Positions 1-37,190 of a stretch of 64,000 nt of DNA are shown one piece after another. Every line of letters starts with the position of its first letter. The first letter of the stretch is position 1. The DNA is taken from assembly GCA_015069195.1 (NCBI GenBank), contig SVJA01000004.1:10978-74977 (forward strand). Reading direction: 5' to 3'. The stretch is from Oscillospiraceae bacterium. Lineage in GTDB: Bacteria > Bacillota > Clostridia > UBA1212. The translations under genes and the position numbers were made by a program. Below the pieces are notes generated by a model. It ran no database searches. It was not told the origin of the DNA and saw only the letters and a program-made list of their open reading frames with translations.

Positions 1-547
1 CTTAGAACGCGAAAAGCAGAAAGAGAAAGAGCGCAAGCAAAAAGAAAGAGACAAAAAGAAAGCTCAGGAACAGAAAGCTTTGATGCTTGAAAAAGATAGA
101 AAAGAAAAAGAGCGTGCGAAAGCTAAAGCTTTAAAAGAGAAGCAACTTGCGGCAGAGAAAGCTCAGAAGGAAAAGGATGCCGCAAAAGCGAAGGCTTTGC
201 GCGAAAGAGAAGCCGCTAAGCTTTTAAAGGAAAGAGAAGCGGCAAAGGCTAAAGCTTTGAAAAAGAAAGAAGCCGAGGCTGAAAAACTTCGCAAGGAAAA
301 AGAGTTACAGCTTGAACGAGACCGAAAAGCTAAAGAACGCGCGAAAGCGAAGGCCTTGAAAGAAAAGGAACTCGAAAAAGAAAAGTTGCGCAGACAGAAG
401 GTCGCAGAAGCTGAAAAAGCTCGCAGACAAAAGGCTACAGAGGCTGAAAAGGCTCGTAGATTAAAGGCTAAAGAAGCCGAAAAGTTACGAATGAAAAAGC
501 AAAAAGAAAGAGAGCAAGAAAAAGCTAAAAAGACTAAGAAAGATTGA
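1..547 (+). CDS. Lys/Glu/Ala-rich charged repeat (coiled-coil-like) protein, C-terminal part; reading frame is open from position 2 so the 5' end lies outside the window
   Basis: ORF 80..547 continues upstream in frame without a stop. Tandem 11-13 aa repeats (KAKALKEKE..., EAEKARRQKAT x3) are mirrored by 33-39 bp DNA repeats. No enzymatic motif. Confidence 0.5.
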   Translation, partial: LEREKQKEKERKQKERDKKKAQEQKALMLEKDRKEKERAKAKALKEKQLAAEKAQKEKDAAKAKALREREAAKLLKEREAAKAKALKKKEAEAEKLRKEKELQLERDRKAKERAKAKALKEKELEKEKLRRQKVAEAEKARRQKATEAEKARRLKAKEAEKLRMKKQKEREQEKAKKTKKD

Positions 548-576
548 ATTTGACACAAATTATGAAAGGAGCGGCT

Positions 577-1473
577 ATGGCAAAGAAAAGCATTTTGAAA
601 AACATACTTATCATATGCGGACTGTTCATTGTACTGATAGCTGCAACTTTTTCGTGGTTTGTTATGAGAGACAGCGGTGATATCGGAAATCTGGAAATGG
701 CAGTTATCGATGCTGCGTATATAAAGGTTTCTAAGGACGAAGGTCTTACTTGGGAAAACAACTTGGACTTAGATCTGGGAACGATAGTTTCTTTGAGGGA
801 AACGACGGGTGACGGTGTAACTTTTTATGAACCTGTATACGACGGTACCGACAGTATAAGCGGATATGTACAATCGGCAAATGAAAATGTGTATTTTGAA
901 AGTGTAATTACTTTTAAGACTGACAGAACCCAAAGTATATATCTTACCGATGAGAGTTTTATTGTTCCGGCAGATACCGCGAGTGATACAAAGAATAAAA
1001 GTGAATTCGGTAATTACAGCAAGGATTATATAGCCGGTGCGATTCGTGTGGGATTTTTTGAGTTGACGGATGCTGGAGAATATAAGCCTGTTTTTATATG
1101 GGTACCAAATCCGAAAATTCAATATAATGCAAAGAATAACACGGTAACGGAAAACGGCACGGTTGAAGATTATTATTCATACTATGCAAATGGTGAAGAA
1201 CCGGGATTCGTGAAAATAATGACAAACGGCGAGTCAGATGGCATGTCAGATCCTTTGGTGTGGGGCAGTTTACAGCAAGACGGAGTAAAACCGGTGTTGT
1301 CTTTTGATAAAGAGACCGAAGCCGAACCTGACGGTAGCATCACTAAAAAGCTTATTGCTCGTGTCTGGGTAGAGGGTACTGACCGCGAATGTGTCAGAGC
1401 ATTGTATCAGGGTAAGTTCAAAATGTATTTTAAATTTCAGGCGGTAAGGGAGGTTAGCAACAATGAAGAATAA
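577..1473 (+). CDS. Secreted protein with SipW-cognate-type signal peptide (paralog 1 of 3); function unknown
   Basis: Start chosen at MAKKSILKN (RBS AAAGGAG 5 nt upstream). N-terminus has a K-rich n-region, a hydrophobic h-region, then TFSWF. Shares DYIAGAIRVxFxELTD, NPK and RVWVEGTDREC motifs with the next two genes. Confidence 0.7.
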   Translation: MAKKSILKNILIICGLFIVLIAATFSWFVMRDSGDIGNLEMAVIDAAYIKVSKDEGLTWENNLDLDLGTIVSLRETTGDGVTFYEPVYDGTDSISGYVQSANENVYFESVITFKTDRTQSIYLTDESFIVPADTASDTKNKSEFGNYSKDYIAGAIRVGFFELTDAGEYKPVFIWVPNPKIQYNAKNNTVTENGTVEDYYSYYANGEEPGFVKIMTNGESDGMSDPLVWGSLQQDGVKPVLSFDKETEAEPDGSITKKLIARVWVEGTDRECVRALYQGKFKMYFKFQAVREVSNNEE

Positions 1474-2605
1474 GAATAAATTAGTAATAAGTATAGTTGC
1501 TATCCTTGTTGCGCTTACGGCTATCGGCGGAACTCTTGCATGGTTCTTCATAAATGAAAGTTCTTATGTAGACTATGGTTCTGACATTTCCTGTGAAGCC
1601 GGACAGAGCTTAGAGATATCTATCGACGGAGGTAAGAGTTGGTCGGGATTTGTGTCAAACGAAGGTTTCAAATCATCCACTGTTGATATAACAGGGGATG
1701 GTATAAATATGTACAGACCCGTTTCTATCGACGAAACTTCAAATCCGACGGGTTACCAACCGGCAGTTGCAATTGATGAAAATGGTGTGGGAGATTTTAT
1801 AGATATTGACTTGATGTTCCGTACCACTTCCAAGATGAATGTGTATCTGAACGGTGAATCATATATTTCTCCTACAAATCCTACGTTGGGCGGAAATATG
1901 TTCGGCAATTTCAGCCGTGATTATATTGCAGGAGCTACCAGAGTTGCTTTTATAGAAGTGACAGATAATGTCGAAACCGGTGCAGAAGAATATGATTTGA
2001 AAATGATTTGGGCGCCCAATCCTAAATATCAGCTTTCGAAGAGTACAGGCGGCATATATACTTTTACTGTTAACGGATCAAGAGAAACATATTACTATAC
2101 TGTCTATGAGGATGGTGAGTATGTAAAGAAAGCTTATACATCTGATGATTTTGCAACATCTCGTTTCCTTGCGGGAAATACCGGTGCTGACATATCAAAC
2201 GGCGGTGAGAGTGCTGTTTTGTTTTCTACAAATCCGGCTGCCGGAGAGTTTGATTACAAAAAAATGAAGATAAGAATTTGGTTTGAGGGAACTGACCGTG
2301 AGGCAAGTGAAGCTCTTGCCGGTGGAAAAGTTGCGGCAAAACTGAAGTTTACCGGATTAAATAAAGCCGTTCCATCCGAAGAGAATTTGAATGCGCTGGA
2401 TGCGGTAGAATATGATGTTTCTTCAAAGTCTTTAACCGGTGTGCTATCGGGAATGGCGTTCTCAACAGACGGATATACTTGGACCGCTTACAATGATGCA
2501 AAGCCTAATTTGCCGAATTTTGACAGCGGAATGATTGTATATTTACGGTACAATGAAACAAAGGGCAGTCTTAGGACTGACATTAAAAAAATAATGATTC
2601 CATAG
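1463..2605 (+). CDS. Secreted protein with SipW-cognate-type signal peptide (paralog 2 of 3)
   Basis: RBS GGGAGG. N-terminus MKNKNKLVISIVAILVALTAIGGTLAWFF. Motifs TGDGINMYRPV, FGNFSRDYIAGATRVAFIEVTD, IWAPNPK, RIWFEGTDREASEAL are shared with paralog 1. Overlaps the upstream gene by 11 nt. Confidence 0.7.
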   Translation: MKNKNKLVISIVAILVALTAIGGTLAWFFINESSYVDYGSDISCEAGQSLEISIDGGKSWSGFVSNEGFKSSTVDITGDGINMYRPVSIDETSNPTGYQPAVAIDENGVGDFIDIDLMFRTTSKMNVYLNGESYISPTNPTLGGNMFGNFSRDYIAGATRVAFIEVTDNVETGAEEYDLKMIWAPNPKYQLSKSTGGIYTFTVNGSRETYYYTVYEDGEYVKKAYTSDDFATSRFLAGNTGADISNGGESAVLFSTNPAAGEFDYKKMKIRIWFEGTDREASEALAGGKVAAKLKFTGLNKAVPSEENLNALDAVEYDVSSKSLTGVLSGMAFSTDGYTWTAYNDAKPNLPNFDSGMIVYLRYNETKGSLRTDIKKIMIP

Positions 2606-2615
2606 AAAGGGGCAT

Positions 2616-3491
2616 ATGCATATGAAAAAATTAAAAGGTCTTATGTCCGTGGTTTCTGTGGTGTGGGCGTTTTTTCTGTTGATTGCATTTACGTTTACAT
2701 GGGTTGCCAGGAACTGGACACCGAGTTTTGAGCAAAATGAAATACAGATCAGTACAGCAGGTGCGCTGGTTATAAGCTTGACCGGTGACGATAATCATGA
2801 CGTTGTTTCTCTTAATGAGGTTGTCCAACTCGATTCATTTGTCTTTAAGCAAGTGTCCAGCCAAGATGGTGAGACATTCTTCTGGAAGGATTTTACTCCT
2901 ACTCTTAATGACGAACCCGCGGTTTACAAAAAGGTTACCGATTTGCAGAAAGAAAACTATATAGACACGGAGTTTGCTTTGAAACTTGACGATTCGCTTA
3001 CTGAACCGAAGTACATATTTATACATCCTGATTCGATTTTGTCCAGCGAAAACATCGGAATATCCTCTGATGTTGCAAAGGCTATAAGGATTTCTTTGCA
3101 GTATGAAGATATCGATGAAAACGGTCAGCCTGTAAAATATTCATATATTTTAGGCAATACAGAAGATAAGGATGAACCGGATTATTCTACTTCGGCGGTT
3201 TTACCCGATGCTGACGGTAAAAATGATAAGGATGAGACTGCTACAAACCAGCAGAAAGTATACAATCTGCGCTATTTCAATGCCGGTTGGGATAATTATA
3301 CAAACGGGCAGACTGATCATAATTTTACGGTTGAACCGTCGAGAACACTGTTCAAACTTAACCCTGGTGGAATAAGATGGATAAAGATGAGAATTTGGCT
3401 TGAGGGTGCAGATGAAAACTGCGTAAATGAAATTGCAGGGCAGTCTTTTGATATGGTGTTGAAATTTGATTCAATCAGTGTATCACAATAA
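2616..3491 (+). CDS. Secreted protein with SipW-cognate-type signal peptide (paralog 3 of 3, more divergent)
   Basis: N-terminus MHMKKLKGLMSVVSVVWAFFLLIAFTFTWVARNW. C-terminal motif RIWLEGADENCVNEIAGQSF aligns with the WxEGTDRE motif of paralogs 1 and 2. Confidence 0.65.
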   Translation: MHMKKLKGLMSVVSVVWAFFLLIAFTFTWVARNWTPSFEQNEIQISTAGALVISLTGDDNHDVVSLNEVVQLDSFVFKQVSSQDGETFFWKDFTPTLNDEPAVYKKVTDLQKENYIDTEFALKLDDSLTEPKYIFIHPDSILSSENIGISSDVAKAIRISLQYEDIDENGQPVKYSYILGNTEDKDEPDYSTSAVLPDADGKNDKDETATNQQKVYNLRYFNAGWDNYTNGQTDHNFTVEPSRTLFKLNPGGIRWIKMRIWLEGADENCVNEIAGQSFDMVLKFDSISVSQ

Positions 3492-4160: not shown

Positions 4161-4724
4161 ATGGTTAAAAAGATTTTTAAAATTTGTTCAACTGTACTGT
4201 TTGTTTTGCTGATGATAATAACCGTAACACTTGTTGTTATGAGATTTATGGGGGAAAGCTACAGTTTCCTTGGGTATAATGCATATTATGTCCTAACGGG
4301 AAGTATGGAGCCTGAGATTATGGCCGGAGATGTTATTTTTTCAAAATCAGTTGATGATATGTCCAAACTTAAAGTCGGCGATGTTATTACATATAACGGC
4401 AGAGTCGGAACGGTAAAGGATAAATCAATAACTCATAAAATTATAGAGATGCGTGAAGAAAACGGTGAACTTGTTTTTGTGACGCAGGGCGTTGCAAATC
4501 CGGCGGCAGACCCGCCGATAACATCGGATCAGATTGTTTCTAAGATGGTTTTTAAAAGCAGTCTTTTAGGAAATGTCGTTTCGGTTGTAAACAACAAGGT
4601 CGGATTTTTAATGATAATAATATTGCCGCTTGCGGTATTCCTTACGAGTGAGGTTGTTTCACTTGTAAGAACATATAAAGAATGTAAGGAGGAACAGGTA
4701 GATGAAGAAAATGCAGCAGCTTAA
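4161..4724 (+). CDS. sipW: Signal peptidase I, ER/archaeal type (S26B), SipW-like
   Basis: N-terminal TM segment followed by YVLTGSMEPEIMAGDVIF, the GSMEP catalytic-Ser box of ER-type SPases. A conserved His lies in GTVKDKSITHKIIE. C-terminal second TM segment. 187 aa. Confidence 0.85.
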   Translation: MVKKIFKICSTVLFVLLMIITVTLVVMRFMGESYSFLGYNAYYVLTGSMEPEIMAGDVIFSKSVDDMSKLKVGDVITYNGRVGTVKDKSITHKIIEMREENGELVFVTQGVANPAADPPITSDQIVSKMVFKSSLLGNVVSVVNNKVGFLMIIILPLAVFLTSEVVSLVRTYKECKEEQVDEENAAA

Positions 4725-7700
4725 AATTTCAAAACTGAAAAATCTTGTAGGTCGACGCTACGGTATGCTTGCACTTGTTCTTTCTTTTGTTATGTTGCTT
4801 ACTACAATATCCTTTGCTTGGTATCAGAATCAGGTTTCTTTGGAAGGTAACACTTTTTCAACCGGTGATATCGATTTTGTGTCACGCGGATATGATAGCG
4901 AGGGAAATCTTGTTACAACTATTTTGCAAGGCGACAAAGATCCTGCCGGCTATGAGAAAGTAAACCAGCCTCTTTTTAATCACATCGGTTGGGATGCAAA
5001 CATGCAGACCGAAACTTCGTACATAGTTGTCGAAAAGACCGGTTCTTTGGAGATGGATTATAAGATAAGCTTTACTGCAGCCGGAACTGTTGAGTATCTC
5101 GGCGGATTTTGGTATGCACTTACCGACGTGACAAATGAGGTTGTGGGTACAAGTTCAAACAGTGACCATTCAGCGCTTCTCAAAGATTATATTGCAAAAG
5201 GCAACAATCCTAAGGCTGAAACTGATGGCTATAATATGGCGACAATGGACAGATATGCGACGATAGGCAGTATTTTAGATGGTTCAAATATAACCGCAAG
5301 ATATTATCGTTTGGACTATGGCATGAAATCTTCTGCAATTCCTGAAGAATACACAAACATGTCTGTTGAGATATTTGCAAAGATTTTTGTGACTCAGGTC
5401 GGCGCTTTGGACAGTGAAGACGGTACAGGTTATACATACAACTGTTCTTCACAGCTTGATATAGAAAAGGCAAGAGAGCAGGCTCTCCCCGGAGATAATA
5501 TTGTATTGCTTAACAATATTACTTTCGAGGGCGATTTGGTTTTCAATAAAGGTGTAAATCTTTTCACAAACAACTACACTTTGGAAGTTCTCGGTAATTT
5601 GATTTACGAATATGTTGCTCCGACTGCGATGACCGTGAATGTTTCCGGTAACGGACGTATTCTTGTCAGTTGCCCTCGTGCGGGAGTCGGCGGCAACTTT
5701 ACAATCGAGGCTCCGAACAGTGATGTAACAATCATCGGAAGTAACACTTCGGACGGTGATATTGTTACTGAGAGCAGATTCACTGTAAGCGGAACACGCG
5801 CCTATGGTGCGGCTGGTGTTACCCTTAGAAACTTAAGAGTTGTAGATAAAGCGTACGGTACTCTTAAAACTATATATGTAAACAGTAATTCAAGAGTGAC
5901 CGTTACTGACAATACAACAATTTCAAGATTGGAAGCTGTTGCCAGAGCTACAAATATCGAAGTTCAGAATATGGGTATCATCCATGAGCTGTCTTTGATA
6001 AATATGTATATTTTGCCGCAGACATTGAGCCCGCAGATTTATGTATATAATATGGGTATTATTACTCAATCTATACAGCTTCCTGCATGGTCTACTCCGT
6101 TCGAAATTGTTACTCAGTCGCCGCTTACATGCTCCGGCAATACAAAAATTGTTCAAGCGATTACGGGTAATGATATGTCCGTAACAGGTGCTACAGTAAC
6201 CGGGGCATTCACAACTGCTGATATTGAAAGAGAAAACATAGACGATACTGTTGTTCCTATGGGTAACAGCAATACTCAGCTTATAGTTTACTATCAGAAT
6301 ATTAAAAAAGACGGTCAGACAGTTGAAACGACTATTCAATCATTACTTGAAGATTATTTCAGAGAGATAAATGTTGTAAATGTTGCGGCAGCTATTGCCG
6401 AAATTACAGATTTGAGAGTTATATCTGTTGAAGGCAAGCAAGTTCTGAATTCTGATATACAGTATCTCAGAGGTGCTGCGTTGCCGTATCTTAAGAATAT
6501 TGATTTGGAACGTGCTATCTTATTTGATACTGTTACTTCAAGAGAAAATCATTTGTTCGACAATGCTTTCAACGGTGATACAAGGATTGAAAATCTTGTA
6601 TTGCCACAGCGACTTGAGTCTATCGGTGTCGGTGCTTTGAGCAATATGTCTTGTGATAATGTTATAAGAATTCCGGAGTCTGTAAAGGAGTTTGGTGTGA
6701 ACTGGTTTAGAGGAACAAAATATGTTTGCTTTGAATCACCCACCCCTGTCATTGCCGCATATAATGCTGCTTCAGGTCTTTCTGGTGTTAAGGCAATATT
6801 TACAGAAGAACCGTATCTTTCTGCATATAGACAAAATTATGCAAACTATGCAAATATTATTTACTGTGTTGGTCAAAAGGATGACAGCGGTAATAATTTT
6901 GTGCGCCGTCTTAATCAGGGAAATGATTGGGAGATTGTTTACTATATTGGTAATCAGGGGAATATAACAAGTCTTTCCGTGGGATCAAATGTTCGTGTCG
7001 ACGGTCAGCTTATTAATATTGTAAATATAGGTGAAAATGCATATGGAAATACTTTGCCGGATTCGGTTACAACTATAAGCTTTGCCGATGGAGTTCGTGT
7101 GATAGGTAAGAGAGCTTTTTACGGTCGACCGATAAAGTCTGTTGAAAGTTGGGGAATATCTTTAACTACAATTGGTTATGGTGCTTTTGAAAATTGCTCC
7201 CTTCTGCAAGGCGAGATAATGCTTCCGGCAACAATGCAGACAATTGACTCGTATGCATTTGCTTCTTGTGGCATGCTTGAGGGTATAAATGCAGGTGGTA
7301 CAAAATTTGTCTATACCGGTGCATTTTTAAATTGTTCCGGTATGGTTTATGCAGATATGTCGAGTGTTGAGACATTTGAGACTGTTGGTACTGTTGGCGT
7401 TTTCAATAATTGCCCCAGACTTGTATCAGTGACTGCTCCGACACTTAAGAAAACAATAGGAAATGTATTTTGGAATTTAAGCTCTCTTAGAGAGGTTGTT
7501 TTCGGTGCGGCTTCTTTTGAAGAAGTTGCTGTTTCCGGATTCACATCATTTTATGGTAGTGTAGGAAATAATACTAAAATATATTTTGATGTGGATGATA
7601 CCTCTTTGGTAGCTATAAACGGTGTGTCTTCTGAACGTATTTATTCTGCTGGTAATAAACTTGGCGAAGTTATTGTTAATGACTATAATATAGGTGAATA

Positions 7701-10700
7701 TATTATTCGAAACAATGACAACGGTGAGGTTGTTTTGGTTACTTCGAATATTGATTATGTTTCAAATGGTAGCAGTGCTGATTTGATATCATTCCCTGAA
7801 GAGTACAATGGAAGTATAGTTACTGAAATTGGTAGAAATGCTTTTCGATATCAGACTTTTGATAATGTGAAAATTTCGTTCGGTAGTGGATTGAAAAAAA
7901 TAGGCGAGTATGCTTTTTATGAGAAGAGCGGTATCGAATATTTGGATTTTAGTCAAGCTGTAAATCTGAAGAATATCGGTGAATATGCATTTTGTAGAAA
8001 TGTCGGAATTGAGGGCGATTTAATTTTGCCCCAAAGTATGCATGAGATTGGTGCATATGCATTTTATAGCTGTTCCGAGATAAGTAATATAAATACAGGT
8101 GGAACTTCTTTTGTCAGAGAAAGTGCATTTGAGTTGTGTGGTAAAATTGTAAAGGCTGAATTGCCTGAAGTTTTGATATTAGGTGGAGCTACTAATGACA
8201 ATTCTGCCGTTTTCTTAAATTGTAGCTCATTGGTAGCTGTATATATGCCGAAATTATATTTGATTAATGGCTTTTACACTTTTCGATATTGTACAGCGTT
8301 ACGCGAACTTCATATGGCAAGTAGCAATGCGGAAATGAATTTTAATGGATATTCTTTTACTGATTGTGATAGTTCTAAAATTAAGATTTTTGTGCCGGAA
8401 GAATTAGTTGATTTCTACCGTGCAAAGGGACTTGCTGGTCTTCAAGATCGTAGTGTGTTTGAAGAGGGTGAGAAGCTAGGTGAAAATATTATTTTCGGAT
8501 ATAATATTGGTGAATATATTGTCAAAGAAAATCATGATGGAACGGCAACTCTTATAACTTCTCGTATTGATTTTTCTAGTGAGGTAGTACTTCCTAGTGT
8601 GTGGAATGATAACGGGGTAGAAAGAAAAATTACTGTTATCGGTGAGAGTGCATTCAAAAATGGTATATTTAATAATGCAACTCTTTCTATTGGTGAATAT
8701 GTGGAATTGATTGAAACAAATGCCTTTGATTCTGCTAATGGGCTTAAGGCGGTTAATTCTTGGGGCAATGCATTAACAACAATTGCAAATAATGCATTTT
8801 TTAATTGTGCAGATTTGACTGCAGATATTGTGTTGCCTGATTCATTGGATTACATAGGTGATTCTGCCTTTGCTTCAAGCGGTATAAAGAGTGTTGTTAC
8901 TGGTGGTGCTACTGCAGTTGGTTGGGACGTTTTTAAGAATTGTCAAAAACTTATATGGGCTGAGCTATCAAATGTGGTGATGATTGGAAAAGCTGGCCGT
9001 GATAATTGTTTATTTGAAGGTTCTGAAAATTTAGTATCTGTTAGAGCTCCGTTGTTATCCGTAGTTAAAGGTCAGTTTATTTTTATTGGCTGTGGCTCTT
9101 TGCGAGAATTGTATTTAGGCGCTTCCGACTTTGAGTCTTTAGGTGGTTATGCTTTTTACTTGTGCCAAACAGATAAGATAAAGATTTTTGTGCCTGCGGA
9201 GTTGTTGGATTTTTATAAAAGTAAGAATCCAGATGGACTAGGTGCTACTCATATTTATCCTATTGGTGAAAAAGTTGGTACAAATGAACTTAATGGTTAT
9301 AACCTTGGAAGATATATAGTTAAAGTTAATGAAGATGGTCAGACTGCTACACTTATAACATCGAATGTATCTTTTGAGGGCGATGTGACATTGCCTAATA
9401 CATTTACGAGTGACGGAAAAGAATTTCCTATTACTGCGATATTTAAAAATGCATTTATGAATGAGTCTTTTACAAATGTGAATCTTACTGTGGGTGCACA
9501 CGTTAAAGAAATCAGTGAGAATGCGTTCTATGGCAGAAAAGGTATTTTGAATGTAAATCTTAAAAATACAGAAACTGTTTGTGATTCTGCTTTCTATAAT
9601 TGCTCGGACATGACAAATCTTGTGGCAAATTATTTGAAAACGATAAAGGGAAACAATGCATTTAACGGATGTTTATCGCTTACAATATTGACTTTGCCCT
9701 CACTTGAAAATGTTACTGGATCGCAGAACTTTGCAAATAATACATCTATCAAGAAGGTTTATTTACAGAATATTGTATCGTTAGGTAATCAGACTTTCTA
9801 CGGTTGTTCAAATCTTGAAGAATTTGTAGTAAATAAAAAGCTTTCTTCTGCAAACGATATACCTACGGCGACAGATGCATTTTCAGGCGACGTTCGCACG
9901 GATCTTCCGATAAGAGTTCCTGCTGCTTCTATGAGTTACTATGGTGGTAGCTGGCAGGGCAGACCGGTGCTTGCTTACGGAGATACTATCGTCGTGGGGG
10001 ATGAGTCTTTTGTTGTTCTTCCTATGAATGGTGGATATATTATCCAATCATATATCGGTGGATCAGAATCCGTTGTGATTCCGGAGACTCTTGGGACGTT
10101 AAATGTTGTAGGTCTTGAAGAAAATGCTTTTGGAATAGTGACACAAACTATTACATCTGTTACTTTACCAAAGTATCTGTATTTCCTTGGTTTTGATGCT
10201 TTGTCGGAACTTTTGGGACTTAATGAGATTGCAGTAGATTCCGAGAATAGATTCTTCTCTTCTGTTGACGGTGTTCTTTATAGCAAAGACAAAAAAATGC
10301 TTGTAAGATATCCGCACGGAAAGACTGATGCATCGTTTACCGTTCCTGATATGGTCGTTGCAATTTCGGGTAATGCATTTAAAAATGCAAGAAATCTTAA
10401 CTCAATAATCCTTGGTAGCGGGTTAGGTGCTATAGACAGTGTTGCATTTATCGGATGTAATTATCTCGGACAGATCACATTCACCGGAGCTGTTCCACCC
10501 GTACTTATGGGAGCCTCGATATTTGATACGAACCTTACCGGATTTACAATGACTGTTCCGACTGGTAGTGTTGATGCATATATACGTGCAATGAATTTTG
10601 CAGAGTATGCACCGTATATGAACGGTGGAATTGAGATCCCGACAAGCGGTGATATGAATATGATTCATTGGGGCCCTGCGGTTGCACAGCAGACAAACGT

Positions 10701-10773
10701 TTACCCAACTTCTTCCAGAAAAAAAGATGAAGAAGATTATGTCGTGAACAGAACTACGACATCAGGCAATTGA
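4702..10773 (+). CDS. Giant (2023 aa) secreted surface protein: SipW-cognate signal peptide plus TasA-like N-terminal module, a beta-helix-like region and many BspA-type leucine-rich repeats (LRR_5)
   Basis: RBS AAGGAGG. N-terminus ...LLTTISFAWYQNQVSLEGNTFSTGDIDF (compare TasA ATFASGTLDL). Dozens of repeats of the form IGxxAFxxCxxLxxIxLP. Four ~260-aa super-repeats each begin with LGENIIFGYNIGEYIVKEN..-like blocks. Overlaps the sipW 3' end by 23 nt. Confidence 0.8.
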   Translation: MKKMQQLKISKLKNLVGRRYGMLALVLSFVMLLTTISFAWYQNQVSLEGNTFSTGDIDFVSRGYDSEGNLVTTILQGDKDPAGYEKVNQPLFNHIGWDANMQTETSYIVVEKTGSLEMDYKISFTAAGTVEYLGGFWYALTDVTNEVVGTSSNSDHSALLKDYIAKGNNPKAETDGYNMATMDRYATIGSILDGSNITARYYRLDYGMKSSAIPEEYTNMSVEIFAKIFVTQVGALDSEDGTGYTYNCSSQLDIEKAREQALPGDNIVLLNNITFEGDLVFNKGVNLFTNNYTLEVLGNLIYEYVAPTAMTVNVSGNGRILVSCPRAGVGGNFTIEAPNSDVTIIGSNTSDGDIVTESRFTVSGTRAYGAAGVTLRNLRVVDKAYGTLKTIYVNSNSRVTVTDNTTISRLEAVARATNIEVQNMGIIHELSLINMYILPQTLSPQIYVYNMGIITQSIQLPAWSTPFEIVTQSPLTCSGNTKIVQAITGNDMSVTGATVTGAFTTADIERENIDDTVVPMGNSNTQLIVYYQNIKKDGQTVETTIQSLLEDYFREINVVNVAAAIAEITDLRVISVEGKQVLNSDIQYLRGAALPYLKNIDLERAILFDTVTSRENHLFDNAFNGDTRIENLVLPQRLESIGVGALSNMSCDNVIRIPESVKEFGVNWFRGTKYVCFESPTPVIAAYNAASGLSGVKAIFTEEPYLSAYRQNYANYANIIYCVGQKDDSGNNFVRRLNQGNDWEIVYYIGNQGNITSLSVGSNVRVDGQLINIVNIGENAYGNTLPDSVTTISFADGVRVIGKRAFYGRPIKSVESWGISLTTIGYGAFENCSLLQGEIMLPATMQTIDSYAFASCGMLEGINAGGTKFVYTGAFLNCSGMVYADMSSVETFETVGTVGVFNNCPRLVSVTAPTLKKTIGNVFWNLSSLREVVFGAASFEEVAVSGFTSFYGSVGNNTKIYFDVDDTSLVAINGVSSERIYSAGNKLGEVIVNDYNIGEYIIRNNDNGEVVLVTSNIDYVSNGSSADLISFPEEYNGSIVTEIGRNAFRYQTFDNVKISFGSGLKKIGEYAFYEKSGIEYLDFSQAVNLKNIGEYAFCRNVGIEGDLILPQSMHEIGAYAFYSCSEISNINTGGTSFVRESAFELCGKIVKAELPEVLILGGATNDNSAVFLNCSSLVAVYMPKLYLINGFYTFRYCTALRELHMASSNAEMNFNGYSFTDCDSSKIKIFVPEELVDFYRAKGLAGLQDRSVFEEGEKLGENIIFGYNIGEYIVKENHDGTATLITSRIDFSSEVVLPSVWNDNGVERKITVIGESAFKNGIFNNATLSIGEYVELIETNAFDSANGLKAVNSWGNALTTIANNAFFNCADLTADIVLPDSLDYIGDSAFASSGIKSVVTGGATAVGWDVFKNCQKLIWAELSNVVMIGKAGRDNCLFEGSENLVSVRAPLLSVVKGQFIFIGCGSLRELYLGASDFESLGGYAFYLCQTDKIKIFVPAELLDFYKSKNPDGLGATHIYPIGEKVGTNELNGYNLGRYIVKVNEDGQTATLITSNVSFEGDVTLPNTFTSDGKEFPITAIFKNAFMNESFTNVNLTVGAHVKEISENAFYGRKGILNVNLKNTETVCDSAFYNCSDMTNLVANYLKTIKGNNAFNGCLSLTILTLPSLENVTGSQNFANNTSIKKVYLQNIVSLGNQTFYGCSNLEEFVVNKKLSSANDIPTATDAFSGDVRTDLPIRVPAASMSYYGGSWQGRPVLAYGDTIVVGDESFVVLPMNGGYIIQSYIGGSESVVIPETLGTLNVVGLEENAFGIVTQTITSVTLPKYLYFLGFDALSELLGLNEIAVDSENRFFSSVDGVLYSKDKKMLVRYPHGKTDASFTVPDMVVAISGNAFKNARNLNSIILGSGLGAIDSVAFIGCNYLGQITFTGAVPPVLMGASIFDTNLTGFTMTVPTGSVDAYIRAMNFAEYAPYMNGGIEIPTSGDMNMIHWGPAVAQQTNVYPTSSRKKDEEDYVVNRTTTSGN

Positions 10774-10779
10774 TAAAAT

Positions 10780-10947
10780 TTAATATTTTTTAAAATTAAA
10801 ATTCGGAGGCATAAGCTGATTTGCTTGTAATAAGTAAAAGGCGAGTGCCTCTGTTTGATTTTCTCTGAATTTTCCTTTTGTGTTTTCATCTGCGAGTGAT
10901 GCGGATAAATCGCGAATCCTTTTCTGGATGTATTGGAATTCTGTCAT
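10780..10947 (-). CDS. Small hypothetical protein (55 aa), MTEFQYIQKRIRDLSASLADENTKGKFRENQTEALAFYLLQANQLMPPNFNFKKY
   Basis: Not in the ORF track (shorter than 60 aa). ATG is preceded by GGAGG with 6-nt spacing. Convergent with the giant gene. No homology recognised. Confidence 0.3.
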   Translation of the reverse strand: MTEFQYIQKRIRDLSASLADENTKGKFRENQTEALAFYLLQANQLMPPNFNFKKY

Positions 10948-11015
10948 AGTAATCCTCCGGTTTTGTAGTTATAAATGTAGTTTATCCCGACAATAAAAAA
11001 ATATGAAAAATGTGG

Positions 11016-11044
11016 TTGACAACGCCTGACGATGCGTATAAAAT
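11016..11044 (+). promoter_or_regulatory. Putative sigma-A promoter of the str operon (TTGACA-17-TAAAAT)
   Basis: TTGACA at 11016-11021, 17-nt spacer, TAAAAT at 11039-11044, about 70 nt upstream of rpsL. Confidence 0.5.
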
Positions 11045-11112
11045 AATCTAGTCTGCGTACAAGGGATTACTATGCCTTGTAGACGGATAGAATATTATTG
11101 GAGGTGAATTGA

Positions 11113-11538
11113 ATGCCAACATTTAACCAGTTAGTTCGTAAGGGAAGAGAGACTCAGACAAAGAAGTCTACATCTCCTGCATTGCAGAGAGGTATAAACT
11201 CACTCAAGAAAAAGTCTACTGACATCAGTTGTCCTCAGAAGAGAGGCGTTTGCACAAACGTAAGAACAACTACCCCTAAGAAGCCTAACTCAGCTTTGAG
11301 AAAAATCGCCAGAGTACGTTTGACAAACGGTATGGAAGTTACTGCTTACATTCCGGGTATCGGACATAACTTGCAGGAGCACAGCGTTGTTCTTATCAGA
11401 GGCGGTAGAGTTAAGGATCTGCCTGGTGTAAGATACCACATTATCAGAGGTACACTCGACGCAGCAGGTGTTAACAACAGACTTCAGAGCAGATCTAAAT
11501 ACGGTGCAAAAGCGCCTAAGGCTGCTGCTAAGAAATAA
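11113..11538 (+). CDS. rpsL: 30S ribosomal protein S12
   Basis: [12 protein letters not shown]...[59 protein letters not shown]; canonical S12. Confidence 0.97.
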
Positions 11539-11665
11539 TATCTGAATATTATTCTCAGCGAAATTTTAAGAATTTTTCATACCGGTTATACCGGAAGGTG
11601 CCGAGTATTTAATATATATGTGCGATAAGCCTTGTTAAATACGCGAGCACTGACTGCGGATATAA

Positions 11666-12187
<522 letters not shown>

Positions 12188-12207
12188 TATCAAGGAGATT
12201 TTAGACT

Positions 12208-14310
12208 ATGGGAAGAGAATATTCACTTAAGAATACCAGAAACATAGGCATAATGGCTCATATCGATGCCGGTAAGACAACAACTACCGAGCGTATACTC
12301 TACTATACAGGTAAGAACCATAAAATCGGTGAGACACACGACGGTGCTGCTACAATGGACTCCATGCAACAGGAGCAGGAGAGAGGTATTACTATCGCCT
12401 CTGCTGCTACGACTGTACACTGGGTTACAGACCGCGGAACAGCTAATGAAAAGGACACAAGAATAAACATTATCGATACTCCCGGACACGTTGACTTCAC
12501 AGTAGAGGTTGAGCGTTCACTCCGTGTACTCGACGGTTCTGTTACACTTTTCTGTGCTAAGGGCGGCGTTGAGCCTCAGTCAGAGACAGTTTGGAGACAG
12601 GCTGACAAATACGGCGTTCCGAGAATAGGTCACGTAAACAAGATGGATATTTTGGGTGCTGACTTCTATCGTGTTGTTGACATGATTAAAACACGTCTCG
12701 GTGCAAATGCAGTGCCGATTACATTGCCTATCGGTAAAGAAGATACATTTACAGGTATTATTGACCTTGTAAAAATGGAAGCTCATATCTATGAGGGAGA
12801 ACTCGGTGAGAAAGTTACCGTTACAGAGATTCCCGCTGATATGATCGAGCTTGCAGAACAGTACAGAGGAGAGATGCTCGAAGCTATCGCTTCTGAAGAC
12901 GAAGAGCTTATGATGAAGTACCTTGAAGGTGAGGAACTCACTATTGATGAAATCAAGGGTGCTATCCGTAAAGCTACTATCGGTCTCAATATCATCCCTG
13001 TTACTTGTGGTTCATCATACAGAAACAAAGGTGTACAGCAGTTGCTTGACGCTATCGTTGACTACTTGCCTTCACCGCTCGACGTTCCTGCTATAAAGGG
13101 TGAACTCCCGGATGGTTCTGAGACAGTTCGTCACTCAAGCGACGAAGAGCCTTTCTCAGCTCTCGCATTCAAAATTTTGACTGACCCGTTCGTAGGTAAG
13201 CTCTGCTTCTTCAGAGTATACTCGGGTTATGTTGACGCAGGTTCTTATGTTCTTAACTCAACAAAGGACAAGAAAGAGCGTATGGGTCGTATCGTATTGA
13301 TGCACTCAAATCAAAGACAGGAAATTGAACGTGCTTATGCCGGTGATATCGCCGCTGCTATCGGTCTTAAAGATACAACAACAGGTGACACACTCTGTGC
13401 AGAGAACAGCCCTGTAATCCTCGAGCGTATGGAATTCCCGGATCCGGTTATTTCAGTTGCTGTTGAGCCTAAGACAAAAGCAGGACAGGAGAAGATGGGT
13501 ATCGCCCTTCAGAAACTTGCTGAAGAGGATCCTACATTCAGAGTAAAAACTGATCCTGAAATCGGACAGACAATCATTTCCGGTATGGGTGAGCTTCACC
13601 TCGAAATCATTGTTGACCGTTTGCTCCGTGAGTTTAAGGTAGAAGCTAACGTAGGTAACCCGCAGGTTGCTTACAAAGAGGGTATCAAGAAAGCTGCTAT
13701 CAAGCAGGAAGGTAAGTTCGTAAGACAGTCCGGTGGACGTGGTCAGTACGGACACTGTGTAATTGACGTTGAACCTTTGGAAAGAGGTAAAGGATACGAG
13801 TTCGTTAATAAAATCGTCGGTGGTGTTATTCCTAAGGAATACATCGGACCTGTTGACCAGGGTATCCAGGAAGCTCTCCAGAGCGGTATACTTGCAGGCT
13901 ATCCTGTAGTAGACGTAAAGGTTACTTTGGTATTCGGTTCATACCACGAAGTCGACTCATCTGAAATGGCGTTCAAGATTGCCGGTTCTATGGCTATCAA
14001 AGAAGCTATAAAGAATGCAGGACCTGTACTTCTCGAGCCTATCATGAAGGTTGTTGTAGTAGTTCCTGAGCCGAACCTCGGTGACGTAATCGGTTCGATC
14101 AATGCTAAACGTGGTCGTATCGAGAGCATTGATGACGGTGCTGCCGGAATCAAGCAGATCACATCTTTCGTACCGCTTGCAGAAATGTTCGGTTACACAA
14201 CACAGCTTCGTTCTATGACTCAGGGTCGTGGTTCATTCTCTATGGAGCCGAGCCACTACGAAGACGTTCCGAAGAGCGTTCAGGATAAGGTTATCGCTGA
14301 GAAAAAGTAA
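12208..14310 (+). CDS. fusA: Elongation factor G
   Basis: [23 protein letters not shown], 700 aa; canonical EF-G. Confidence 0.97.
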
Positions 14311-37107: not shown

Positions 37108-37190
37108 TGCGGATAACAGGACTTGAACCTGCATGAAGTTGCCCTCACTGGTACCTGAAACCAGCGCGTCTGCCATTCCGCCATATCCGC
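37108..37190 (-). tRNA. tRNA-Leu (anticodon CAG), class II with long variable arm
   Basis: Reverse complement GCGGATATGGCGGAATGGCAGACGCGCTGGTTTCAGGTACCAGTGAGGGCAACTTCATGCAGGTTCAAGTCCTGTTATCCGC-A. 7-bp acceptor stem, anticodon loop TTCAGGT, T-loop TTCAAGT. Confidence 0.85.

Follow-up and report, generated by a model that had tools for sequence, protein, structure and literature searches.

A 64,000-nucleotide stretch of contig SVJA01000004.1 from an Oscillospiraceae bacterium (assembly GCA_015069195.1, positions 10,978 to 74,977; hereafter, the window) contains a giant gene whose 2023-amino-acid (aa) product consists mostly of leucine-rich repeats (LRRs), arranged in larger tandem blocks behind a head of a different kind. 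Are these blocks the outcome of a recent expansion, which could make the protein subject to phase or length variation, and how might a protein of this size be exported and held at the cell surface? An earlier note on this DNA had answered the first question in the affirmative. We found that the blocks are old and that the array is not a switch, and that the giant gene belongs to a conserved operon, in which it overlaps a gene for a SipW-type signal peptidase. The giant protein is a secreted BspA-type surface protein with multiple LRR_5 domains, encoded by an uncultured gut/rumen Clostridia bacterium. Its LRR array is ordinary; the head, the coupling to SipW, and the conserved unannotated operon are a new form of the SipW/TasA theme. 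A literature search revealed no study linking SipW with BspA-type or LRR adhesins, the two terms occurring together in just two papers.

The open reading frame (ORF) of the giant gene was confirmed. The database entry of its product, MBE7064925.1, originates from a Ruminococcaceae/Oscillospiraceae metagenome-assembled genome (MAG) and is labelled "hypothetical protein". The sole Pfam match was to PF13306 (LRR_5, BspA-type), which covered six stretches of the protein with an E-value of 4.7e-93 and a score of 308 bits, against a gathering cutoff of 27.7. There are 28 IGxxAF-type motifs, spaced 21–25 aa apart, which corresponds to a repeat unit of ~23–24 aa with an IGxxAFxxCxxL core. At the sequence level, the LRR part matched solved BspA-type structures 4fs7 (E 9.6e-23) and 4gt6 (E 9.3e-21), as well as PcpA (4cp6, E 3.6e-15), TpLRR (6mlx, E 6e-10), and 4h09. 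Hydropathy analysis detected a single hydrophobic segment, aa 21–39, preceded by a Lys/Arg-rich start. Neither an LPXTG motif nor a second transmembrane (TM) or hydrophobic segment, including a C-terminal one, was present in the 2023-aa protein, and Pfam recognized no wall-binding domain in its C-terminal tail. The signal peptide, the non-LRR head with a β-helix, and the BspA-type LRRs in ~260-aa super-repeats described in the earlier note are borne out. By analogy with other members of the LRR_5 family, the giant protein most likely functions as an adhesin.

Self-comparison of the protein showed that the super-repeats are real: when pieces of the protein were compared with the rest of it by BLAST, diagonals appeared at an offset of ~268 aa, with E-values between 1e-15 and 1e-38. 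Four modules, A to D (Table 1), could be aligned with one another along their full length, A being as close to the others as those are among themselves. The most similar pair, B and C, is 39% identical overall, and no more than 46% identical locally. Each module opens with the usual LRR_5 cap, YxIGxYIV..N.DG...L(I/V)TS, and closes with KI.VP..L.D.Y, from which it follows that the super-repeats represent complete LRR_5 domains arrayed in tandem. A further module, E, is only 17–24% identical to modules A–D and gave no self-BLAST match at the 1e-4 cut-off, and matched a hidden Markov model (HMM) of A–D only weakly, at 17 bits (maximum for shuffled sequences, 1.9); its orthologue was found in relatives. 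The module at aa 521–725 scored 6.2 with the same HMM (shuffled maximum, 2.0), and is marginal. Block starts had been placed earlier at aa 985, 1265, 1530, and 1770. These agree with the starts of modules B, C, D, and E at aa 987, 1259, 1525, and 1759; the set of four blocks did not hold, however, since module A (aa 726–986) had been missed and the block at aa 1759 is an outlier.

The age of the array was evaluated from the divergence of its modules and from relatives. Module pairs share 17–39% of residues and 36–51% of bases. Where two modules have an identical residue, they agree in its codon in 31–56% of cases, while 44% is expected from the codon usage of the giant gene, which implies that synonymous sites are saturated. 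A relative of 2028 aa (P0002), whose head is 83% identical, contains orthologues of every module at 68–76% identity, whereas three others (P0004, P0005, and P0006; heads 42–57% identical) contain a single module in place of B and C. The B/C duplication, the youngest in the array, thus falls between the two splits, which makes it old.

No feature that could support switching was found in the giant gene. Tandem Repeats Finder reported nothing relevant, and the longest direct DNA repeats were 54 bp at 74% identity (self-blastn) and 42 nt at 76% (repeat search). Repeats of di- to hepta-nucleotides were absent, the only simple tracts being three A7 runs, all within the LRR part. There were no convincing inverted repeats either, the longest being 22 nt, and scattered. 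The start of the giant gene overlaps the last 23 nt of the signal peptidase gene, and because of this overlap the giant gene lacks a separate promoter region. The identical 2023-aa product was found on 17–22 contigs of different samples, in assemblies from ENA, JGI, and Logan (a look-up by exact sequence and, as such, a limited test), and the 90% identity cluster of the protein consists of one sequence, with no variant. Between species, module number does vary, with product lengths of 1742–1789 and 2023–2028 aa and a maximum of 4141 aa.

A recently expanded tandem-repeat adhesin that switches its repeat number or its expression would agree with the mere existence of super-repeats, and with the different module numbers in relatives from other species, which point to length changes on an evolutionary time scale. 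The low DNA identity of the modules and their saturated synonymous sites, the absence of longer or better direct repeats, of simple sequence repeats, and of longer inverted repeats, the B/C duplication that predates the split from the closest of the relatives above, and the invariance of the product in independent contigs all argue against it, and we give this explanation almost no credence. The recent internal duplication claimed earlier is contradicted by the same data. The proposed phase or length variation likewise finds no substrate in a gene devoid of simple sequence repeats, near-identical repeats, an invertible element, and its own promoter region. An assembly artefact was also rejected, because the modules are too diverged for an assembler to collapse or expand them, and because independent assemblies agree. 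The array expanded through ancient whole-domain duplication and is now a stable set of diverged binding modules, which probably differ in specificity, rather than a repeat tract that recombines.

The overlapping upstream gene codes for a signal peptidase I of the archaeal/ER type: its product scored 98 bits with TIGR02228 (cutoff 51.85) and matched the SipW model NF046067 with an E-value of 3.9e-29. The signal of the giant protein ends in SFA↓WY, where the arrow marks the predicted cleavage site. The logo of 82 family members reads S/T (−3), F/Y (−2), A/S (−1), followed after the cleavage site by W and F/Y (+1). The W after the cleavage site is invariant (82 of 82 members), and the motif continues with G (+9) and TG (+14, +15). 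The same "↓W" signal motif is common to the four small proteins encoded upstream of the peptidase gene and to two more encoded further upstream.

The gene order 309 – 380 – 291 – 205 – SipW – giant (numbers are product lengths in this window) is kept in four loci of relatives (L008, L009, L010, and L011), in which the giant heads are only 32–56% identical and the giant proteins are 1680–3883 aa long. In each of these loci, the gene of a SipW homologue occupies this position and overlaps the giant gene. The loci were found by a profile search of contigs with a four-sequence alignment, a search with a single protein having found none. Among the sources of relatives are an Acutalibacteraceae MAG and a Clostridia MAG of water-buffalo cecum. 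There were no relatives in viral contigs, and a phage origin was rejected on these grounds.

The head was modeled with AlphaFold2 (AF2) from a 17-sequence alignment. The predicted local distance difference test (pLDDT) score was 82, and the model contained a helix at aa 2–47, spanning the signal. For the isolated N-terminal domain, the predicted template modeling score was 0.81. This predicted β-sandwich includes a conserved N-terminal strand (..TG.I..) and an N..(P)G....Y..I.NTGSL hairpin. It is followed by a predicted β-helix (pLDDT ~90), whose short strands recur every ~20–25 aa. Pfam and NCBIfam contained no family for the head, a head profile found nothing among PDB sequences, and a Foldseek search of viral structures with the head returned nothing significant. 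An exhaustive HMMER search showed that the head is a unit present in 129 cluster representatives at 50% identity, 53 of them with E≤1e-30 (a word-index homologue search returned one match only, and the family count is that of the exhaustive search). Nearly all 129 match at their N-terminus or close to it. Most full-length matches are 1.4–4.1 thousand aa long, with a maximum of 4141 aa. All seven full-length relatives of >1,000 aa that were checked contain 3–15 LRR_5 stretches, while of two short head matches one has a single LRR_5 stretch and the other none. Every named match is annotated as "hypothetical".

Is the head TasA-like, as had been suggested? The two motifs quoted for the head, NVSGNGRILVSC (aa 313) and GSNTSDGDIV (aa 346), were placed in the predicted β-helix rather than in a TasA-like domain. 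A resemblance was found closer to the N-terminus. When the N-terminal domain, with its signal, was aligned by hhalign with a 25-sequence TasA profile, an E-value of 0.001 and a probability of 21% were obtained over 80 columns. The aligned region extends from the signal through the N-terminal strand to the first hairpin, is collinear with TWA↓AFND...FASGTLDL of TasA, and sets A39↓W40 of the giant protein on TWA↓AF. We take TWA↓AF to be the SipW cleavage site of TasA, and TFA↓YF that of CalY. PF12389 (TasA/camelysin) matched 2 of 17 relatives at 2.5e-5. With a single TasA sequence, hhalign aligned the motifs only, at no significance. The 205-aa exported protein encoded just upstream of the peptidase gene matched the head N-terminal domain profile with signal at E 4.6e-5 (probability 68%), the TasA profile at E 0.0017 (probability 15%), and TIGR04090 at E 0.076.

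Several results weigh against extending this likeness to the fold. Without the signal, the E-value of the alignment with the TasA profile dropped to 0.021 and the probability to 2%, and the match of the 205-aa protein to the head N-terminal domain was weak (E 0.009). PF12389 did not match the giant protein even at E≤10, and removal of the signal peptide left one of the relatives matching it, at E 0.19. A Foldseek search of PDB with the head or its isolated N-terminal domain returned no TasA, TapA, or AbpA among the top matches, and nothing with an E-value below 1e-3. The comparisons thus suggest that the export signal and the N-terminal motifs of the giant protein are TasA-type, while fold homology is unproven. 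The term "TasA-like" is therefore appropriate for the export signal and the gene context, and is unproven for the fold.

Taken together, we consider it reasonably probable that the giant protein is a SipW-processed, multi-domain BspA-type LRR adhesin, perhaps displayed on fibres of the co-encoded small proteins. It would be exported by the Sec pathway through its TasA/camelysin-style signal peptide, which would then be cut off, between A39 and W40, by the SipW-type peptidase of the overlapping gene. Cleavage at this site by the adjacent peptidase appears fairly likely from the signal motif, and translation of sipW and of the giant gene, whose pairing is conserved, is coupled. The mature protein would consist of the β-sandwich, the β-helix as a stalk, and six complete LRR_5 domains, four of which are the ~260-aa super-repeats. 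Finally, the head may attach the LRR array to a matrix fibre or pilus that the small proteins form. This last step is suggested by the lack of a C-terminal anchor, combined with the constant company of five to six small proteins with the same signal, and by analogy with TapA/TasA, with FimH-type tip adhesins, and with the AbpB proposal, according to which a TapA-like protein could start a TasA-like filament, its distal domains acting as adhesins (PMC9245690). We regard docking as a tentative idea, which may well turn out to be wrong.

Weighing against this scheme is the fact that cleavage, fibres, and ligand binding of the giant protein are all inferred from sequence. The signal could also stay uncleaved and serve as a membrane anchor, in which case the protein would be a type II membrane-anchored adhesin working alone, with neighbours that are unrelated exported proteins. 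The single continuous helix of aa 2–47 in the AF2 model is what such an anchor would look like, the giant protein has no other anchor, and its partnership with the neighbours is a prediction. However, the small residues at −3 and −1 and the invariant Trp after the hydrophobic core resemble a processing site, and the dedicated signal peptidase gene, which is translationally coupled, keeps its position across distant relatives. Moreover, a membrane anchor below the Gram-positive wall would bury the head, though an array of ~2000 aa could still reach out. An uncleaved anchor therefore seems unlikely, if worth bearing in mind.

The protein might instead be processed by SipW and then simply set free as a binding protein, either soluble or embedded in the matrix, with no fibre involved. 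Such an outcome would suit a head whose tie to TasA and TapA at the fold level is unproven. The presence of the head unit in ~129 clusters and its strict co-linearity with five to six same-signal proteins argue, circumstantially, for a shared structure, and make simple release quite unlikely in our opinion. Finally, the β-helix of the head could be an enzyme, such as a polysaccharide lyase or depolymerase, that the LRR array targets to its substrate. Foldseek did report weak matches to β-helices of a polysaccharide lyase family 6 (PL6) chondroitinase and of an alginate lyase, with E-values of 0.016–0.12. But the PL6 matches are not significant, Pfam revealed no lyase or hydrolase match, and the invariant residues of the head are G, N, P, L, I, and T, with no invariant acidic or basic residue among them. 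An enzymatic head is thus very improbable. The arrangement on which the preferred reading, a SipW-processed adhesin, is based is presented in Table 1.

Table 1. Features of the giant LRR gene and of the genes preceding it, in window coordinates
Feature	Start	End	Strand	Description
Tail of 637-aa protein	1	547	+	Lys/Glu-rich C-terminus; gene starts upstream of the window (L001 3933-5846)
309-aa exported protein	544	1473	+	SipW-type signal ..ATFS↓WF..; RIWLEGxDxxC paralogue family
380-aa paralogue	1463	2605	+	..GTLA↓WF..; 33% identical to 309-aa protein, E 4e-33
291-aa paralogue	2616	3491	+	..FTFT↓WV..; same RIWLEGxDxxC family
205-aa exported protein	3526	4143	+	..ATFA↓WI..; faint likeness to giant N-terminus and to BsaA/TasA-type proteins
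SipW-type (archaeal/ER-type) signal peptidase I	4161	4724	+	187 aa; TIGR02228 sigpep_I_arch, NF046067
Ribosome-binding site AAGGAGG	4687	4693	+	8 nt 5' of ATG at 4702
Giant LRR gene	4702	10773	+	ORF of 2023 aa
Signal peptide	4702	4818	+	aa 1-39; Lys/Arg-rich N-region, core 21-38, predicted cleavage SFA↓W (A39↓W40)
N-terminal β-sandwich domain (predicted)	4819	5436	+	aa 40-245; AF2; sandwich proper aa 56-235
Predicted right-handed β-helix	5437	6261	+	aa 246-520; AF2
Divergent first LRR_5 module	6262	6876	+	aa 521-725; Pfam LRR_5 at ~aa 620-675
Super-repeat A	6877	7659	+	aa 726-986; complete LRR_5 domain
Super-repeat B	7660	8475	+	aa 987-1258; self-BLAST, alignment, HMM
Super-repeat C	8476	9273	+	aa 1259-1524; nearest paralogue of B
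Super-repeat D	9274	9975	+	aa 1525-1758; shorter by about one LRR unit
Divergent C-terminal LRR_5 module E	9976	10671	+	aa 1759 to ~1990
C-terminal tail and stop codon	10672	10773	+	Short, polar; no LPXTG, TM segment, or wall-binding domain

The neighbouring genes were studied in the window and in locus L001, which extends beyond the window edge. Pfam and NCBIfam searches with the four small exported proteins revealed no family. The 309-, 380-, and 291-aa paralogues have 186 database matches, all of them unnamed or labelled "hypothetical protein", and without a Pfam domain. Members of this 290–380-aa family (window 544-3491, L001 17-1519) share an N-terminal (T/S)(F/Y)(A/S)↓W(F) and a C-terminal RIWLEGxD(R)EC...GG...LKF motif; from its sequence, the acidic/Cys motif might bind metal. 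Beyond the window edge, L001 encodes two more "↓W"-signal family members (one of them cut short where the locus ends), along with a second SipW paralogue. The two SipW-type paralogues (243 aa, L001 1597-2328, and 187 aa, window 4161-4724) are each located 5' of different putative substrates. The sipW duplication is also present in L006, a low-GC relative carrying P0001.

The second SipW paralogue is followed (L001 2379-5846) by the gene of a 507-aa protein with N-terminal TM segments and a McrB-like AAA+ GTPase domain (McrB E 2e-7), and then by that of the 637-aa protein, whose Lys/Glu-rich tail is ~230 aa long. Homologues of the 637-aa protein occupy the same position in L010 and L011 (40–49% identity) and carry the Pfam domain DUF2357. 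The AAA+/DUF2357-type pair lies inside the SipW/adhesin cluster in every examined locus with that stretch on the contig, and the AAA+ protein is the product of the best conserved gene of the cluster, being 65% identical where the giant heads are ~32% identical. The presence of a McrBC-like pair in a surface-protein operon was unexpected. In L006, the AAA+ gene is split into ORFs of 80 and 233 aa (5990-7139), and the giant gene into a 109-aa ORF, which covers the signal and the first part of the head, and one of 927 aa (9492-12784). These splits could be due to decay of the system, to sequencing errors, or to a different genetic code in the lineage of this relative.

The rpsL-rpsG-fusA-tuf operon follows downstream of the giant gene, with a promoter-like site of its own. 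A 55-aa ORF (window 10780-10947, minus strand), called as a gene in every metagenome copy, separates the giant gene from the rpsL promoter; no family match was recorded for it. The sole Rfam match at gathering score within the 64-kb window is a tRNA (37108-37190, minus strand).

A more ambitious interpretation takes in the entire ten-gene cluster, that is, two SipW-type peptidases, the McrB-like AAA+ GTPase with its DUF2357-type partner, five to six small proteins, and the giant protein. The cluster could specify an undescribed Gram-positive surface filament of gut/rumen Oscillospirales, in which the small "↓W" proteins would polymerise in a TasA-like, chaperone-free manner, while the giant head would plug in as a tip or anchor subunit, displaying up to 15 LRR domains. 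The nucleoside triphosphatase pair would be involved in assembly or control. We regard this interpretation, in its complete form, as speculative and rather improbable.

The repeats are not a switch, which removes the reason for which the array had been flagged; as a bacterial surface protein, it is of an ordinary kind. What is left is a coherent family of proteins, with its operon, found in uncultured gut/rumen Clostridia and wholly unnamed or "hypothetical" in source databases. The family joins SipW/TasA-style export, so far known for small subunits of matrix fibres, to adhesins of 1.4–4.1 thousand aa. If the head docks on the co-encoded fibres, this would be a new, sortase-free way of displaying adhesins in Gram-positive anaerobes, and would offer a starting point for explaining the attachment of abundant uncultured Oscillospirales to particles, host mucus, or partner cells.

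The LRR part of the giant protein has its closest counterparts in BspA-type proteins (Tannerella forsythia BspA, Treponema pallidum TpLRR, Streptococcus pneumoniae PcpA, Streptococcus agalactiae HupY/LrrG, and structures 4fs7, 4gt6, and 4h09), with which it shares the ~24-aa IGxxAFxxCxxL unit. Like the giant protein, these proteins are extracellular, and their domains are capped at both ends, at the N-terminus by a strand. In contrast to them, the giant protein has six complete LRR_5 domains behind a unique head of a β-sandwich and a β-helix, and uses a SipW-type signal, with no choline-binding, LPXTG, lipoprotein, or type IX secretion system anchor. With the HupY equivalog model, it scored 85 bits against a cutoff of 1250.

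The gene context is reminiscent of tapA-sipW-tasA of Bacillus subtilis (and of calY/tasA of B. cereus and bsaA of Clostridium perfringens), where an archaeal-type peptidase is likewise encoded between its presumed substrates. The signal end, small-aromatic-small followed after the cleavage site by an aromatic residue, is similar in the two systems, the TG.(I/L) strand motif is collinear with that of TasA, and several small exported proteins are co-encoded here. The differences are nevertheless considerable. The product encoded after sipW is a 2023-aa LRR array and not a 26-kDa fibre subunit; PF12389 is unmatched, and the TasA jelly-roll (5of1, 8aur) was not recovered by fold search. In addition, the operon studied here contains two sipW paralogues and genes for a membrane-anchored McrB-like AAA+ protein and a DUF2357-type protein.

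By analogy, the giant protein may also be compared with the AbpB/AbpA bundling pili of Pyrobaculum and with FimH-type tip adhesins, which have a β-sandwich next to the signal and distal domains beyond it. In the case of AbpB/AbpA, it was proposed that the distal domains serve as adhesins and that the proximal part is built into a donor-strand filament (PMC9245690). The Pyrobaculum operon, too, encodes a predicted GTPase. No similarity of sequence or fold was demonstrated between these proteins and the giant protein, whose distal part comprises ~1500 aa of LRR domains, and whose system is bacterial and equipped with dedicated signal peptidases.

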